Shown: piece after piece, positions 4,706 to 45,530 of the stretch
How positions within the stretch are numbered: position 1 is the first letter of the stretch
How the letters are laid out: each line of letters opens with the position of its first letter
Sequence record: OR539218.1
From: Escherichia phage vB-Eco-KMB26
Direction: 5' to 3' (one strand)
Length of the DNA stretch: 64,000 nucleotides
Notes under the pieces: model-generated
Told to the model about the DNA's origin: nothing
The model's input: only the letters and a program-made list of their open reading frames with translations
The model's database searches: none
Position numbers and translations under genes: made by a program

Positions 4706-5907
4706 TATTTTGTAATAATGTCAAACTGTTCTTTAAAGCAGAAGCTTGAATCTTGATGCTGATACAAAAATTCATATGCTTTTTCTCGCTCACGGTCATA
4801 AAGAGCTCGGTCAGATGACAGTTCTTTAATACGTTCAAACGTTGATTCCATATCATTTTCATCAAACCAAATGATACCGCTATCATGCGAGGTCAAAGGA
4901 GTATTATCAACACGGAATTTTAAATTTTCGCCAGTAGATTTCCAAAATACCGGAATTGTTCCACATGCACCAAGCTCGAGATGAGTATATTCTAAAGAAC
5001 GTTGCAGATATTTTTTATCCAACTTACTCAACTGATAACCAAATCCGGATTTACTCATGCGTTCAAGCATTTCGCTATTTACATAACGGTCAAGAATTTG
5101 CGTTGGCAAATTAGGAGCAATTTTAATTTGGTCTACTTGATGAAGACGATAATACTCGTATGGAATTCCTTTTTCTTTAATAGGAATGAACGCTGGAGAA
5201 CGTTCCAGACCTTCCATAATAGTACTTAGTCCTGCAGGTTTAAGATGTTTTTCATGAAAATCAAACATCTGATAAAAACCTTTCCATGTAGTCGTACGAC
5301 CAATCCAACGGTTGATATTCATGTTAATTTCAGAAACATCTTTCCAGTAGGTTGACCGAACCTTCGCAATATCCATAGGAGGCTGAAAGTTATATACTGT
5401 CGGTGCTTCTTCAATATCATCAAACAGAGAAACAGTTTCTGGATACCATTCTTTCATCAGAACTTTATTAAAATCACCATTATCAGAATGACTAAAAATA
5501 ACATCAGCTCGACGAACAGTTTCTTCTAATCCCAAATTTCGACGCAAAGAAAGAGAAGAATGGTCATGTTGATAAACTACAACACGAACAGAAGGTTTAA
5601 TGTTATCAATAATTTTTTTATAGTTATTAATAGTGTCTTCTTCAACCGAAGTAGCAGGAACTGAATTGATAATTAGAATATCACAATCATTTACCAGCTT
5701 AAGTGTTTTATCATATTCTTTTGCCAATAAAACCGGAATTGAAAATGATTTATAATCATGCGCGCAATTACGAGTAAATGATTTATCTTTAGCATAAACC
5801 AAAGTTACTTCATGACCATTTTTAATAAACCAATCACGTTGCTCGAGTGAGAATTTTGTTACACCACAACCTTCAAGACCTCGAGCCATAAAAATACATA
5901 CTTTCAT
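4705..5907 (-). CDS. a-gt: DNA alpha-glucosyltransferase
   Basis: 400-aa ORF near-identical to T4 alpha-glucosyltransferase as recalled. Confidence 0.93.
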   Translation of the reverse strand: MKVCIFMARGLEGCGVTKFSLEQRDWFIKNGHEVTLVYAKDKSFTRNCAHDYKSFSIPVLLAKEYDKTLKLVNDCDILIINSVPATSVEEDTINNYKKIIDNIKPSVRVVVYQHDHSSLSLRRNLGLEETVRRADVIFSHSDNGDFNKVLMKEWYPETVSLFDDIEEAPTVYNFQPPMDIAKVRSTYWKDVSEINMNINRWIGRTTTWKGFYQMFDFHEKHLKPAGLSTIMEGLERSPAFIPIKEKGIPYEYYRLHQVDQIKIAPNLPTQILDRYVNSEMLERMSKSGFGYQLSKLDKKYLQRSLEYTHLELGACGTIPVFWKSTGENLKFRVDNTPLTSHDSGIIWFDENDMESTFERIKELSSDRALYDREREKAYEFLYQHQDSSFCFKEQFDIITK

Positions 5908-26353: not shown

Positions 26354-26935
26354 CTAACCGAGCTTTTTAGTTAATTCATTCCAATGCTTTCTACACAAAG
26401 AAACATAAATTTCATCACCAATACAGATTTGATTACCTTCTTTAACTGGTGTTCCATCTTCCATTAATCGAGCTGTCATAATAGCTTTTTTACCACAATG
26501 ACAAACTGCCTTTAGTTCAATAAGTTTATCTGCAATCGCCAAAAGTTCTTTAGAACCTTCAAATAATTTTCCAGCGAAATCAGTCCTTAGCCCATAAGCC
26601 ATAACAGGAACATTATATGTATCAACAATTCGACTTAATTGATGCACCTGTTCAGTTTTTAAAAACTGAGCTTCATCTACAAATACACAATGAATATCTT
26701 TTTGTGCTTCAGCCCATTTATAGAACTCAAAAATATCCATATCATCCGTAATAATATTCGCTTCCTGCTTAATTCCAATGCGAGAAACGACTTCACAGAC
26801 AGAATCGCGAGTATCAATAGCAGGCTTAAGAACTAATACACCCATTCCGCGTTCTTTATAATTATGTGCAGCAGTCAAAAGAGAAGCAGATTTTCCAGCA
26901 TTCATTGCTGCGTAAGTAAAAATTAAACTCGCCAT
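26354..26935 (-). CDS. tk: Thymidine kinase
   Basis: 193 aa; P-loop AAMNAGKS; C-terminal Zn-binding Cys pairs; matches T4 Tk. Confidence 0.92.
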   Translation of the reverse strand: MASLIFTYAAMNAGKSASLLTAAHNYKERGMGVLVLKPAIDTRDSVCEVVSRIGIKQEANIITDDMDIFEFYKWAEAQKDIHCVFVDEAQFLKTEQVHQLSRIVDTYNVPVMAYGLRTDFAGKLFEGSKELLAIADKLIELKAVCHCGKKAIMTARLMEDGTPVKEGNQICIGDEIYVSLCRKHWNELTKKLG

Positions 26936-32154: not shown

Positions 32155-32191
32155 TGTGAATATACTATCACAATTCTAGGAGAAAGTAAAC
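32155..32191 (-). promoter_or_regulatory. Early promoter upstream of denV (-35 GTTTAC, -10 TAGTAT)
   Basis: Minus strand GTTTACtttctcctagaattgtgaTAGTAT. Confidence 0.5.
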
Positions 32192-32195
32192 AACT

Positions 32196-32726
<531 letters not shown>

Positions 32727-35892: not shown

Positions 35893-36156
35893 TTATTTCA
35901 TATTATTGAAATATTCTTCTGCGATTTCATCGTTATCATGGTAAACTTTAGAAGACAGTTTAACATAACCTTCAGCAGTGAACATGTTAATCACAACCTT
36001 TACAGTATACCACTGACCATCTTCATTACCCATTACTGCATAGGTTTCAAACATCGGATGGTCAGGACCGATAACTTTAATATCATTCACTGTACGACCG
36101 AAATCTTCTGAAACACATTTCATAAAGAAGTTGAACAGTTCGCCGTAATTATCCAT
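35893..36156 (-). CDS. Hypothetical small acidic protein (ORF track extends to 36168)
   Basis: Start MDNYGELF after GGAG RBS. Confidence 0.5.
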   Translation of the reverse strand: MDNYGELFNFFMKCVSEDFGRTVNDIKVIGPDHPMFETYAVMGNEDGQWYTVKVVINMFTAEGYVKLSSKVYHDNDEIAEEYFNNMK

Positions 36157-36186
36157 TTCATTCTCCAAGTTGTTTTTGTATCAGTA

Positions 36187-36278
36187 GTTGATAGTTGTAT
36201 AGTACCATGGAAGAACAGGGATGTAAACAGTTGTTGATAGTTGTATAGTACCATGGAAGAACAGGGATGTAAACAGTT
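36187..36278 (-). repeat. Exact tandem duplication (2 x 46 bp), each copy a complete early promoter
   Basis: gttgatagttgtatagtaccatggaagaacagggatgtaaacagtt occurs twice back-to-back (36187-36232, 36233-36278). Confidence 0.9.
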
Positions 36279-36408
36279 TTGTGAAAAAATTTTTTAAAAA
36301 GTTTTAGGGAATTCTAGGGCAGGGAGGGGCAATTAAAAGATAGGATAATATATTATAAAGGGTAGAAACTAAATGATGTCTAGAGAGGCCCGGAAAGGCC
36401 TAGATACC

Positions 36409-36435
36409 AAAAAGCCCCAACCTTTTGGTCGGGGC
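36409..36435 (-). terminator. Intrinsic terminator GCCCCGACC-aaaa-GGTTGGGGC + U5, downstream of the IP-like gene; near-identical to hairpin at 36964-36990
   Basis: 9-bp stem and T-run read on minus strand. Confidence 0.65.
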
Positions 36436-36443
36436 TAAGAATG

Positions 36444-36917
36444 TTATTTGATTTGTTTAGCAGACCAAATGCGGTCTTTAATAATTTTTTGGATGTCTTC
36501 AACATACTCAAGAGAGTGAACATGTGGGTTATCTTTGAAACTATAAGCACGAGCTAGCTTTTGGCCTTCAGTTTTGATTACTAAAAGCTCTTTAAGGATA
36601 GCTTCATATTTGGAGATAATTCCTTTAACAATATTTTTCTCTTGTGTGACTTTAGGATCTGCTTTAGGAGCAGGTTTACCTGAAGCCTTTGCAAAAGCAG
36701 CTCCAGTAGCAACTAAACTTTTCCAAGCCATACTAACTGCATTCCCTGTAAATCCTTCGGCTTTCATATCACGAGCAAATTGGAATCGTGATTCATCGGA
36801 AGCATCTTTATAGGAATATTTACCCGCGGCAATGGCAGCTTTTGCAACAGCTTGAATTTCAGTGCTAGATGCTTCATTTAACACCGCTTCATTTAAAAAT
36901 TGAGTATATGATTTCAT
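36444..36917 (-). CDS. Internal-protein-like gene with N-terminal capsid-targeting-like sequence MKSYTQFLNEA
   Basis: 157 aa; start resembles the T4 IP targeting sequence MKTYQEFIAE; late promoter directly upstream. Confidence 0.55.
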   Translation of the reverse strand: MKSYTQFLNEAVLNEASSTEIQAVAKAAIAAGKYSYKDASDESRFQFARDMKAEGFTGNAVSMAWKSLVATGAAFAKASGKPAPKADPKVTQEKNIVKGIISKYEAILKELLVIKTEGQKLARAYSFKDNPHVHSLEYVEDIQKIIKDRIWSAKQIK

Positions 36918-36954: not shown

Positions 36955-36962
36955 ATTTATAC
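36955..36962 (-). promoter_or_regulatory. Late promoter TATAAATA upstream of the IP-like gene
   Basis: Exact minus-strand TATAAATA about 38 nt before the ATG. Confidence 0.55.
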
Positions 36963-36963
36963 T

Positions 36964-36990
36964 AAAAAGCCCCAACCTTTCGGTCGGGGC
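36964..36990 (-). terminator. Intrinsic terminator GCCCCGACC-gaaa-GGTTGGGGC + U5 at the 3' end of the tRNA/stable-RNA transcription unit
   Basis: Second copy of the 36409-36435 hairpin. Confidence 0.65.
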
Positions 36991-37042
36991 TAAGCCTTGC
37001 GGCAACCTTGTCGGGGTTCCACCTGCTAAGGCAAGTGTTTGT

Positions 37043-37307: not shown

Positions 37308-37383
37308 TGGTCGAGGCAGTAGGGATCGAACCTACGACCCAGGACTTAGAAGGTCCTTGCTCTTCCTTCTGAGCTATGCCTCG
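37308..37383 (-). tRNA. tRNA-Arg (anticodon UCU), CCA encoded
   Basis: Hand-folded cloverleaf: 7-bp acceptor, anticodon loop cuUCUaa, T-loop TTCGATC. Confidence 0.85.
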
Positions 37384-37387
37384 TATT

Positions 37388-37462
37388 TGGCGGACGTGAT
37401 AGGATTCGAACCTATAACCAATCGCTTAACAGGCGATCGCTCTGCCATTGAGCTACACATCC
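37388..37462 (-). tRNA. tRNA-Asn (anticodon GUU), CCA encoded
   Basis: Hand-folded cloverleaf; anticodon loop cuGUUaa. Confidence 0.8.
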
Positions 37463-37466
37463 AAAT

Positions 37467-37553
37467 TGGTGGGGAGTGGTGGAGTCGAACCACCCGAGTC
37501 GCAATGACAATGAATTTACAGTCCACACCGCTACCTCTACGGGATAACTCCCC
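37467..37553 (-). tRNA. tRNA-Tyr (anticodon GUA), long variable arm, CCA encoded
   Basis: Anticodon loop cuGUAaa; 87 nt; perfect acceptor stem. Confidence 0.7.
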
Positions 37554-37562
37554 AAATTAATT

Positions 37563-37637
37563 TGGTGGCCCTGGGTGGAATTGAACCACCATCTGGCGAT
37601 TATGAGTCGCTTGCTTGAACCTTCCAGCTACAGGGCC
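37563..37637 (-). tRNA. tRNA with CAU anticodon (most likely the AUA-reading tRNA-Ile by position; Met not excluded)
   Basis: Perfect 7-bp acceptor; anticodon loop cuCAUaa; position matches T4 tRNA-Ile. Confidence 0.7.
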
Positions 37638-37638
37638 T

Positions 37639-37714
37639 TGGTGCTGATTGACGGAATCGAACCGCCGACCTTCTCATTACAAGTGAGTTGCTCTACCTAC
37701 TGAGCTAAATCAGC
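37639..37714 (-). tRNA. tRNA-Thr (anticodon UGU)
   Basis: Hand-folded; anticodon loop cuUGUaa. Confidence 0.85.
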
Positions 37715-37719
37715 AAAAC

Positions 37720-37809
37720 TGGCGGAGGCGATAGGATTTGAACCTATGAGTCGCCGGAGCGACTGCCGGTTTTCAAGACCGGTGCATTAAACCACTCTGC
37801 CACGCCTCC
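37720..37809 (-). tRNA. tRNA-Ser (anticodon UGA), long variable arm
   Basis: 90 nt; anticodon stem CCGGU/ACCGG; loop cuUGAaa. Confidence 0.85.
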
Positions 37810-37811
37810 AG

Positions 37812-37885
37812 TCTCCGTGGCAGGATTTGAACCTACGACATTCTGCTCCCAAAGCAGACGCTCTACCAAACTGAGCTACACGGAG
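37812..37885 (-). tRNA. tRNA-Pro (anticodon UGG), no encoded CCA; abuts tRNA-Ser
   Basis: Hand-folded; anticodon loop uuUGGga. Confidence 0.85.
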
Positions 37886-37895
37886 TAAATTAAAT

Positions 37896-37969
<74 letters not shown>

Positions 37970-37974
37970 AAATT

Positions 37975-38061
37975 TGGTGCGAGAAGTGGGACTCGAACCC
38001 ACAAGGAAATCATTCCGCAGCATTTTAAGTGCTGTGCCTTTACCAATTTGGCCATTCTCGC
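37975..38061 (-). tRNA. tRNA-Leu (anticodon UAA), long variable arm
   Basis: 87 nt; anticodon stem CAGCA/UGCUG; loop cuUAAaa. Confidence 0.85.
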
Positions 38062-38062
38062 G

Positions 38063-38135
38063 CTGGGAATAAAGGACTCGAACCTTTGCATCCTGGAATC
38101 AAAATCCAGTGCCTTACCAACTTGGCTAATTCCCA
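38063..38135 (-). tRNA. tRNA-Gln (anticodon UUG), no encoded CCA; abuts tRNA-Leu
   Basis: Hand-folded; anticodon stem CUGGA/UCCAG; loop uuUUGau. Confidence 0.85.
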
Positions 38136-39106: not shown

Positions 39107-39127
39107 TTTATTCTCCTCAGTAGTAGA

Positions 39128-39164
39128 TAGGGTAATAGTATCACTACCCTATCTAAAAGTAAAC
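39128..39164 (-). promoter_or_regulatory. Early promoter (-35 GTTTAC, -10 ATACTATTAC variant)
   Basis: gatagggtaatagtatcac...gtaaac. Confidence 0.5.
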
Positions 39165-39398
39165 TTATTTTTTACGAAAAATTGATTTATTTTCTGCTGC
39201 CCATTTTTCAATAACTGCAGCAGGACCAGTAACAACAATTTTATCACCGTAATCTTCTGCGGCGAGTTGACCGAAATTATCTAATGCATCACGAAGAACT
39301 CCATGAGGCATTTCACCCATTTTATCTTTCTTGCCAGTGTAAATAAACTCAACTTTTACATCAGCAGTTTCAGCAATAAATTCTTGGTAAGTTTTCAT
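39165..39398 (-). CDS. Internal protein (IP-type) with exact capsid-targeting sequence MKTYQEFIAE (ORF track extends to 39410)
   Basis: N-terminal 10 aa identical to the T4 IP targeting sequence as recalled. Confidence 0.65.
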   Translation of the reverse strand: MKTYQEFIAETADVKVEFIYTGKKDKMGEMPHGVLRDALDNFGQLAAEDYGDKIVVTGPAAVIEKWAAENKSIFRKK

Positions 39399-39424
39399 TT
39401 TGATTTCCATTTGGTTTTGTTTTG

Positions 39425-39462
39425 ATAGGGTAATAGTATCACAACTAAAACCCTATGTAAAC
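39425..39462 (-). promoter_or_regulatory. Early promoter (-35 GTTTAC, -10 ATACTATTAC variant)
   Basis: gatagggtaatagtatcac...gtaaac. Confidence 0.5.
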
Positions 39463-39474
39463 AACTTTGTGAAA

Positions 39475-39732
39475 TTATTTTAAATCTTCTAATCGTTTCT
39501 TCATCTTAGAGCCATTTTTAGCAATTTCTCCTGCATCGGAGCATAATGCTAAAAGTGCTTTAACTTTAGTTTGGTCTCCTTTAAAAGATGAAGGATCGAC
39601 CGCAGCAGCAAGTTCTTTAATACGAGAGAAAAGACGCTCAGCTTCAGCTAAAGCCATTCCAAGCTTTACTTCCATACCGTGGGAAGATTCAGTAATAGTA
39701 GTTTTTGTAGCAAACTCTTTGAAAGTTTTCAT
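39475..39732 (-). CDS. Internal-protein-like protein with targeting-like N-terminus MKTFKEFATK
   Basis: 85 aa; N-terminus resembles MKTYQEFIAE. Confidence 0.55.
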   Translation of the reverse strand: MKTFKEFATKTTITESSHGMEVKLGMALAEAERLFSRIKELAAAVDPSSFKGDQTKVKALLALCSDAGEIAKNGSKMKKRLEDLK

Positions 39733-39755
39733 TTTTATTTTCCTAATTAATTTTG

Positions 39756-39793
39756 ATGTGGTAATAGTATCACTACCTCATCAGTATGTAAAC
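39756..39793 (-). promoter_or_regulatory. Early promoter (-35 GTTTAC, -10 ATACTATTAC variant)
   Basis: gtggtaatagtatcac...gtaaac. Confidence 0.5.
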
Positions 39794-39805
39794 AACTTTG
39801 TGAAA

Positions 39806-40490
<685 letters not shown>

Positions 40491-43819: not shown

Positions 43820-45530
43820 TAACCTTAATTGGTTTGTTGGTGTTGTTGAAGATAGAATGGACCCATTAAAATTAGGTCGTGTTCGTGTTCGTGTGGTTGG
43901 TCTGCATCCACCTCAAAGAGCACAAGGCGATGTAATGGGTATTCCAACTGAAAAATTACCATGGATGTCAGTTATTCAACCTATAACTTCTGCAGCAATG
44001 TCTGGAATTGGAGGTTCTGTTACTGGACCGGTAGAAGGAACTAGAGTTTATGGTCATTTTTTAGACAAATGGAAAACTAACGGAATTGTCCTTGGCACGT
44101 ATGGTGGAATAGTTCGCGAAAAACCGAATAGACTTGAAGGATTTTCTGACCCAACTGGGCAATATCCTAGACGTTTAGGAAATGATACTAATGTATTAAA
44201 CCAAGGCGGAGAAGTAGGATATGATTCGTCTTCTAACATTATCCAAGATAGTAACTTAGACACTGCAATAAATCCCGATGATAGACCACTATCAGAGATT
44301 CCAACCGATGATAATCCAAATATGTCAATGGCTGACATGCTTCGCCGTGATGAAGGATTAAGACTAAAAGTTTATTGGGATACTGAAGGATATCCGACAA
44401 TTGGTATTGGTCATCTTATCATGAAGCAGCCAGTTCGTGATATGGCTCAAATTAATAAAGTTTTATCAAAACAAGTTGGTCGTGAAATTACTGGAAACCC
44501 AGGTTCTATTACGATGGAAGAGGCGACGACTTTATTTGAACGTGATTTGGCTGATATGCAACGGGACATTAAATCACATTCTAAAGTAGGACCAGTCTGG
44601 CAAGCTGTCAACCGTTCTCGTCAAATGGCGTTAGAAAATATGGCATTTCAAATGGGTGTTGGCGGTGTAGCTAAATTTAACACAATGTTAACTGCTATGT
44701 TAGCCGGAGATTGGGAAAAAGCATATAAAGCCGGTCGTGATTCATTGTGGTATCAACAAACAAAAGGCCGTGCATCCCGTGTTACCATGATTATTCTTAC
44801 GGGGAATTTGGAATCATATGGTGTTGAAGTGAAAACCCCAGCTAGGTCTCTATCAGCAATGGCTGCTACTGTAGCTAAATCTTCTGACCCGGCTGACCCT
44901 CCTATTCCAAATGACTCGAGAATTTTATTCAAAGAACCAGTTTCTTCATATAAAGGTGAATATCCTTATGTGCATACAATGGAAACTGAAAGCGGACATA
45001 TTCAGGAATTTGATGATACTCCTGGGCAAGAACGATACAGATTAGTTCATCCGACTGGAACTTATGAAGAAGTATCACCGTCAGGAAGAAGAACAAGAAA
45101 AACTGTCGATAATTTGTATGATATAACCAACGCTGATGGTAATTTTTTGGTAGCCGGTGATAAAAAGACTAACGTCGGTGGATCAGAAATTTATTACAAC
45201 ATGGATAATCGTCTTCACCAAATAGATGGAAGCAATACAATATTTGTACGTGGCGATGAAACTAAGACAGTTGAAGGCAATGGAACTATCCTAGTTAAAG
45301 GTAATGTTACTATTGTAGTTGAAGGTAATGCTGACATTACAGTTAAAGGAGATGCTACCACTTTAGTTGAAGGAAATCAAACTAACACAGTAAATGGAAA
45401 TCTTTCTTGGAAAGTTGCTGGGACAGTTGATTGGGACGTTGGTGGTGATTGGACAGAAAAAATGGCATCTATGAGTTCTATTTCATCTGGTCAATACACA
45501 ATTGATGGATCGAGGATTGACATTGGCTAA
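43803..45530 (+). CDS. 5: Baseplate central spike / tail lysozyme gp5
   Basis: 575 aa; internal lysozyme domain (DEGLRLKVYWDTEGYPTIGIGH); C-terminal VxGxxxx beta-helix repeats. Confidence 0.95.
   Translation: MEMISNNLNWFVGVVEDRMDPLKLGRVRVRVVGLHPPQRAQGDVMGIPTEKLPWMSVIQPITSAAMSGIGGSVTGPVEGTRVYGHFLDKWKTNGIVLGTYGGIVREKPNRLEGFSDPTGQYPRRLGNDTNVLNQGGEVGYDSSSNIIQDSNLDTAINPDDRPLSEIPTDDNPNMSMADMLRRDEGLRLKVYWDTEGYPTIGIGHLIMKQPVRDMAQINKVLSKQVGREITGNPGSITMEEATTLFERDLADMQRDIKSHSKVGPVWQAVNRSRQMALENMAFQMGVGGVAKFNTMLTAMLAGDWEKAYKAGRDSLWYQQTKGRASRVTMIILTGNLESYGVEVKTPARSLSAMAATVAKSSDPADPPIPNDSRILFKEPVSSYKGEYPYVHTMETESGHIQEFDDTPGQERYRLVHPTGTYEEVSPSGRRTRKTVDNLYDITNADGNFLVAGDKKTNVGGSEIYYNMDNRLHQIDGSNTIFVRGDETKTVEGNGTILVKGNVTIVVEGNADITVKGDATTLVEGNQTNTVNGNLSWKVAGTVDWDVGGDWTEKMASMSSISSGQYTIDGSRIDIG

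Follow-up and report, generated by a model that had tools for sequence, protein, structure and literature searches.

The early promoters of bacteriophage T4 are of the UP/-35/TGn/-10 type (PMC2988021), with GTTTAC at positions -36 to -31 and an A-rich stretch at -40 to -44 and beyond (PMC1524935), and UP elements occur at them (PMC2988021, PMC1524935). One such promoter, near 70.7 kb of the T4 genome (NC_000866), is present once, upstream of the gene e.8, and reads TTTTTTCACAAAACTGTTTACATCCtTGTTCTTCCATGGTACTATACAACTATCAACTACTG, one base off the unit that we describe below. Natural pairs of co-directional sigma-70 promoters that drive a single gene, without another gene in between, are known from Escherichia coli; they are usually unlike in sequence, separately regulated and conserved, and when the start sites are >35 bp apart a fitted kinetic model gives one to two times the output of a single promoter, never more (PMC8830795). 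T4 itself readily makes tandem duplications, usually at 2–10 bp of exact microhomology, and its segmental amplifications (dmd-tifA, genes 16-18, rII) are head-to-tail, 0.5 to several kb long, include the gene, comprise many copies and can lead to higher expression of a small early gene (PMC9391042). In the PeSL cassettes of T4-like phages, a repeated early-promoter motif lies near a stem-loop terminator in a variable region, and ORFs are exchanged or deleted between the dispersed copies (PMC2839356, PMC4122927). A cassette combines a stem-loop terminator with an early promoter that comes directly after it; it recurs through the variable regions and borders indels that distinguish close relatives. 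The locus described here differs from the cassettes in that one promoter core has been duplicated on the spot, leaving no sequence between its two copies.

We analysed a stretch of 64,000 nucleotides, referred to as the window, which is a Tequatrovirus (T4-like) genome. A sequence-only reading of it had claimed an exact, spacer-free 46-bp tandem duplication at 36187–36300, and direct string comparison bore out the duplication, in that 36187–36232 and 36233–36278 are identical 46-nt units arranged head-to-tail with zero spacer and zero mismatch. Tandem Repeats Finder also called the repeat (36182–36278, period 46, 2.1 copies, 98% matches), and with a score of 187 it is the top tandem repeat of the 64-kb window and its sole long exact one. 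The exact periodicity extends over 92 nt and breaks at 36186 (a) versus 36232 (t) and at 36279 (t) versus 36233 (g), so that the duplicated segment is defined to the base and no exact microhomology is present at the junction. An exact repeat of 46 nt cannot be due to chance. The start that had been proposed for the repeat is correct; the end at 36300 overruns it into the A/T-rich upstream element at 36279–36305. No Rfam covariance-model match overlapped 36187–36305 at E ≤ 1. The features of the locus are:

36413 to 36436, minus strand: intrinsic terminator that ends the upstream 157-aa gene, annotated as a terminator in relatives
36279 to 36305, minus strand: A/T-rich UP-type element AAAACTTTTTAAAAAATTTTTTCACAA, at -41 to -67 of the distal copy only
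36233 to 36278, minus strand: distal (upstream) copy P2, the e.8 early-promoter core from -40 to +6, with GTTTAC at 36274-36269, TG at 36253-36252 and TACTAT at 36250-36245, directly next to the native UP element
36232 to 36233, no strand: duplication junction, with no exact microhomology; 4 of 5 bases agree between CAGTa (36182-36186) and CAGTt (36228-36232)
36187 to 36232, minus strand: proximal (downstream) copy P1, with GTTTAC at 36228-36223 and TACTAT at 36204-36199, in the native downstream context; the other copy replaces its UP element
36238, minus strand: predicted distal start site, an A 7 nt past TACTAT by promoter geometry, giving an 82-nt leader that spans the whole proximal copy
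36192, minus strand: predicted proximal start site, by promoter geometry, giving the native 36-nt leader
36158 to 36208, minus strand: 16-codon upstream ORF (uORF) MVLYNYQLLIQKQLGE, only in distal-promoter transcripts, without a Shine-Dalgarno sequence, ending one base ahead of the e.8 AUG
36163 to 36166, minus strand: e.8 Shine-Dalgarno sequence GGAG, invariant in a 13-sequence alignment
35893 to 36156, minus strand: e.8 coding sequence, 87 aa (PF26879 Phage_T4_Y07A; phrog_2678), the first gene behind the duplicated promoter

On the minus strand the repeated unit reads AACTGTTTACATCCCTGTTCTTCCATGGTACTATACAACTATCAAC and is laid out as GTTTAC, 14 nt of any sequence, aTGg and TACTAT, which is the T4 early-promoter pattern; under the published numbering, with GTTTAC at -36 to -31, the unit runs from -40 to +6 (PMC1524935). 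The window contains 15 matches to the pattern where 0.51 would be expected, and every one is on the minus strand; in a generic sigma-70 scan, each copy came out as TTTACA-17-TACTAT plus an upstream TG. Both copies carry the exact GTTTAC (-36 to -31) and an ATGG-TACTAT extended -10 with TAnnnT, with 14 nt from GTTTAC to the tetramer and a 17-bp spacer counted from TTTACA. The two scans thus confirm the proposal that each copy holds the -35 and -10 of the early-promoter class seen across the window. Both copies lie on the e.8 strand, 36–82 nt 5' of the e.8 ATG and downstream of a terminator, in a position orthologous to the T4 e.8 promoter, and an identical sequence in the ASO78A record carries a T4 early-promoter annotation (1 mismatch). 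Judged by these motifs and by its position, the element belongs to the T4 early-promoter class and is the orthologue of T4's e.8 promoter, with which it shares the sequence, the UP/GTTTAC/TGn/-10 architecture, the gene served and the strand. In contrast to T4 and the relatives examined, which have one copy, the window has the -40 to +6 core twice, the second core being without an UP element.

Since the duplication stops at -40, the A/T-rich block at 36279–36305 serves the distal copy only, and the proximal copy has lost the UP element; the -41 to -60 region of the proximal copy is the -10/+1 region of the distal one. Over these positions the A+T content is 90% for the distal and 65% for the proximal copy (hand count). 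We then scored both copies with a weight matrix derived from the remaining 13 early promoters of the window, a small set whose comparison values are leave-in, so that the scores are qualitative only: the cores scored alike (35.4 for both), whereas the UP regions (-66 to -41) scored +8.5 for the distal and -7.5 for the proximal copy, as compared to a mean of 8.3 for the 13 other promoters, the lowest of which is still above the proximal copy. The TTTTTCACAA part of the UP-type element is invariant in all 12 aligned relatives. By its motifs, the distal copy has every sequence-defined feature of a T4 early promoter, and the proximal copy lacks the UP element among them; the distal copy, with its native UP element, should be the stronger of the two. 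The description of the repeat as two back-to-back promoters therefore holds for the core elements and fails for the UP element, which the distal copy alone has kept.

A 1.35-kb query around the site matched 640 phage records at up to 99.9% identity, and 22 kb of the window matched the closest relatives at 99.6%. In the best 60 of 531 matching phage records, a 191-nt query from the window spans 144–147 nt, and over 361 nt the sole difference between ASO78A and the window is one 46-nt gap. In an alignment, twelve relatives (T4 and eleven other genomes or metagenome contigs) each show one copy, and GTTTAC, TGGTACTAT, the start region and TTTTTCACAA do not vary among them; a scan of related loci found exactly one core and no junction in 23 of 23. 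Six loci (L028–L033), some of them from records already scanned, were left out of the core scan; the spacing from the upstream gene to e.8 is 229–242 nt in five of the six, like that of single-copy loci, and the sixth (L030) has a different, shorter upstream gene that makes its spacing uninformative. The e.8, gp5 and e.4-like proteins are widespread (1305, 184 and 124 blocks, respectively), and all places returned were single-copy. Searches across the junction were negative for a 48-mer in 50,697 phage records, for a 31-mer in IMG/VR and for a 23-mer in GTDB genomes; the lone metagenome match to the junction 23-mer (L002) is a chance match with unrelated flanks. By direct BLAST the window is collinear with its closest relatives, an apparent 4.7-kb length difference being an effect of how pieces were joined, and the 46-bp duplication is the only sizeable indel. 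As far as these comparisons reach, the duplication is specific to the window genome and appears to have arisen after its split from relatives that are 99.6–99.9% identical locally. The earlier suggestion that it is recent is upheld in the sense that it is lineage-specific, because T4 and every relative examined are single-copy and none of the collections searched contains the junction.

In phage Lutter, the second annotated 'promoter' overlies the Shine-Dalgarno region and does not represent another copy. In IMG/VR, strict early-promoter core pairs 35–65 bp apart gave 0 matches, and a relaxed TGR pair pattern gave 3 (L014, L015 and L016), none of which is a T4-type promoter pair; L015 and L016 look like coding sequence. 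L014 (IMGVR_UViG_3300020205_001863, positions 823–901) is an unrelated viral contig with a 49-bp tandem repeat that has 1 mismatch and the motif GTTTAC...TGATACACT; the repeat lies ~80 nt upstream of a 566-aa ORF that, from its sequence alone, resembles a giant-virus-type major capsid protein.

We consider it likely that the window carries a genuine, lineage-specific 46-bp duplication of the e.8 sigma-70 promoter core, with two non-equivalent copies and a gain in output of less than two-fold. The head-to-tail arrangement without intervening sequence is that of documented T4 microhomology duplications; the exact homology at the ends of the 46-bp unit is 0 bp, against the 2–10 bp of the T4 cases (PMC9391042). 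What is present by the blunt junction is an imperfect match of 4 of 5 bases (CAGTa/CAGTt), with the mismatch at the base adjoining the junction, and slipped or illegitimate recombination at this imperfect repeat is the probable source of the duplication. As a conjecture, a slipped 3' end at CAGTt could have re-paired at CAGTa and been extended with a terminal mismatch, which would give the observed product. In comparison to the T4 amplifications, the window duplication is of 46 bp, concerns the promoter only and has two copies. Its effect on the phage is probably nil or mildly beneficial. It can probably be lost again; the instability proposed for it is plausible.

Genomes of the T4 type are circularly permuted and give circular assemblies, and an untrimmed overlap of k-1 = 46 nt (k = 47) from a re-opened circle or from merged contigs would also leave two copies in a row with no need for microhomology. 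Such an artefact of assembly or finishing is in keeping with the perfect identity of the copies, the blunt junction and the occurrence of the duplication in no other genome searched; moreover, the window is collinear with the T4 map, so that the record may have been re-oriented after assembly, and the site is in A/T-rich intergenic DNA, where coverage dips and contigs tend to end. However, of the 46-nt positions in the window, only 0.4% enclose the whole promoter core and only 2–5% are wholly non-coding, which is where an overlap placed at random would seldom fall and where selection would filter a real duplication of 46 bp, a length that is not a multiple of 3. The assembly is otherwise clean, with no other long exact tandem repeat in 64 kb, few indels and no frameshifting one in comparison with the closest relative, whose tk is split while that of the window is intact, and the commonest assembler settings are not known to leave an overlap of 46 nt. 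We consider an artefact unlikely; if the repeat is one, its only value is the correction of a genome record, and in either case knowledge of T4 transcription is unchanged. A genuine duplication, the reading that we prefer, implies that promoter-only micro-duplications occur in T4-type phages beside the known gene amplifications. It also constitutes a natural experiment, in which the same strong T4 early-promoter core occurs with and without an UP element, 46 bp apart in one genome, and which is usable for studying the contribution of the UP element, Alt dependence and tandem-promoter interference in vivo. The duplication is then a minor, strain-specific and probably recent regulatory mutation of a well-known promoter, and no new kind of element.

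A T4-type early promoter is expected to fire as soon as infection begins, with host RNA polymerase that is unmodified or Alt-modified. Promoter geometry places the start sites at ~36238 and ~36192, 46 bp apart; our literature searches for 5'-end data on the e.8 promoter region in T4 start-site maps and for T4 tandem-promoter duplications returned nothing usable. The footprint of RNA polymerase in the open complex is approximately -55 to +20, and at 46-bp spacing two such footprints overlap; the two sites are therefore predicted to compete or interfere. Polymerase bound at the proximal core would cover the distal -10 and start site, and polymerase bound at the distal core would cover the proximal -35. 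Among E. coli tandem promoters, the predicted 46 bp falls in the class (>35 bp apart) in which the downstream polymerase blocks elongation from the upstream promoter (PMC8830795); unlike the natural E. coli pairs, the window pair is identical in sequence, unconserved and very recent. Because of the interference at this spacing and the missing UP element at the proximal copy, the gain is expected to be well under two-fold, with early transcription of e.8 and of the co-transcribed downstream genes between 1x and 2x that of one promoter. The claim that the repeat doubles promoter dosage is thus over-simple, as two-fold is the upper bound rather than the expectation (PMC8830795).

The longer transcript differs also in its leader. 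An AUG that is normally untranscribed now lies inside the 82-nt leader and opens the 16-codon uORF, which is probably not translated because it is without a Shine-Dalgarno sequence. In the minimum-free-energy fold of this leader, GUUCUUCC pairs with the Shine-Dalgarno region, and such partial pairing may offset any gain; the fold is not more stable than those of shuffled sequences (z = -0.12), and we claim no regulatory RNA structure. These points bear on whether a real duplication has any functional effect. If one site dominates, e.8 expression could be unchanged or slightly lower and the duplication a neutral hitch-hiker awaiting loss; the dominant site would then most likely be the distal copy with its UP element, its bound polymerase covering the proximal -35. 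The UP-region score of the proximal copy, far under those of all other early promoters, the overlap of the predicted footprints and the pairing of the long leader with the Shine-Dalgarno region are as this reading predicts, and interference only lowers output relative to two independent promoters (PMC8830795). On the other hand, the -35, TGn and -10 that the proximal copy keeps are of consensus quality, and such elements are enough for a strong sigma-70 promoter (PMC2988021); the leader structure is no stabler than its shuffled controls. We regard the absence of any effect as possible but the lesser prospect, and retain a gain of less than two-fold from two unequal copies as our preferred reading.

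The gene behind the repeat, which the sequence-only reading had named by its coordinates 35893–36156, is real and is the homologue of T4 e.8. Very many assemblies encode the identical protein, and only 5 clusters of homologues were found. A local Pfam scan gave only a sub-threshold match, the PHROGs entry is of unknown function, no relative was found in PDB, and our literature search on e.8 found nothing usable; the AlphaFold model (pLDDT 57) is too poor for a fold search. A 152-aa 'e.8' of vB_EcoM_IME537 (P0001) is an annotation over-extended by 65 residues through the single-copy promoter and its UP element, an error in that record. Around the site, genes are encoded on the minus strand, and 10 tRNA genes form a cluster just upstream. 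The variable early region in which e.8 lies has many genes for host takeover and counter-defence, among the latter the known Acb1/57B and IPI.

This location would suit an adaptive cis-regulatory amplification, selected as more e.8 or downstream product helps on a particular host, comparable to the T4 tifA amplification versus toxIN. The duplicated segment (-40 to +6) encloses the promoter core almost exactly, and tandem amplification is a known route by which T4 overcomes problems of dosage (PMC9391042). However, e.8 is without a Pfam-scan match or a PDB relative and has a low-confidence model only, there are two copies only with no recurrence among relatives (best 60 of 531 records), and a tolerated 46-bp duplication must be non-coding anyway, with 8–16% of such positions including the promoter core. 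We find an adaptive origin doubtful. Its specific form, a selected mutation that raises very early e.8 expression to overcome something in the isolation host and forms a minimal counterpart, of 46 bp, to the kilobase-scale tifA amplification, strikes us as quite improbable; if true, it would flag e.8 as dosage-sensitive and would point to its function.

The terminator at 36413–36436 is predicted to isolate the e.8 promoter from upstream transcription. It lies ~110 nt upstream of the promoter, and the likeness of the locus to the PeSL cassettes is one of context only; a second copy at 36959–36994 flanks the 157-aa ORF. The two intrinsic terminator copies (36404–36439 and 36959–36994, minus strand) are 94% identical and enclose the ORF at 36444–36917 (phrog_2280, unknown function). 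T4 has one terminator and no ORF at this spot, and its positions 4826–4860 of L003 align to both window copies; relatives have other ORFs there, of 187, 153, 94 or 221 aa, GIY-YIG. The 157-aa ORF looks like a PeSL-like cassette, putatively inserted or exchanged by recombination at the repeated terminator.

Other early promoters of the window also occur in close succession. On the minus strand of 39122–39821, early promoters at 39164, 39462 and 39793 (298 and 331 nt apart) are each followed by a small ORF; the two upstream-most promoters share 86% identity over 71 nt, and the starts of the ORFs resemble each other as well (repeat families D1 and D6). Judged by this similarity, the segment is an apparent older promoter-plus-gene tandem array, at a place where relatives carry small genes including IPI. 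A distance of 109 nt separates two different early-promoter matches on the minus strand (32162–32191 and 32271–32300), of which the upstream one is within the 3' end of the lysozyme gene e; non-identical tandem early promoters therefore occur naturally in the window genome.

A 152-aa homologue of Acb1/57B (PF23474 anti-CBASS family in relatives) is encoded at 39806–40264 (minus strand), and its neighbouring genes are widespread. No exact match to this product was found among 153 billion recorded gene positions, and on that search it is a strain-specific variant, as it appears. The tRNA cluster at 37308–38135 (minus strand) has ten genes versus eight in T4, the extras being tRNA-Asn and tRNA-Tyr, and is without the internal segB homing-endonuclease gene; the 'tRNA-Met (cat)' called by ARAGORN is tRNA-Ile(CAT) in the annotations of relatives and T4. 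Thymidine kinase is intact in the window (193 aa; ORF 26354–26935), and at the site corresponding to 26485 the closest relative, PYps15T, has one extra T in a T-run and its tk is annotated in two pieces, probably through a sequencing error or as a pseudogene in that relative. Finally, an imperfect 24/48-nt tandem repeat (71–81% matches) at 45269–45401 (plus strand) lies inside gene 5 and agrees with the 8-residue motif that recurs in the C-terminal beta-helix of gp5.
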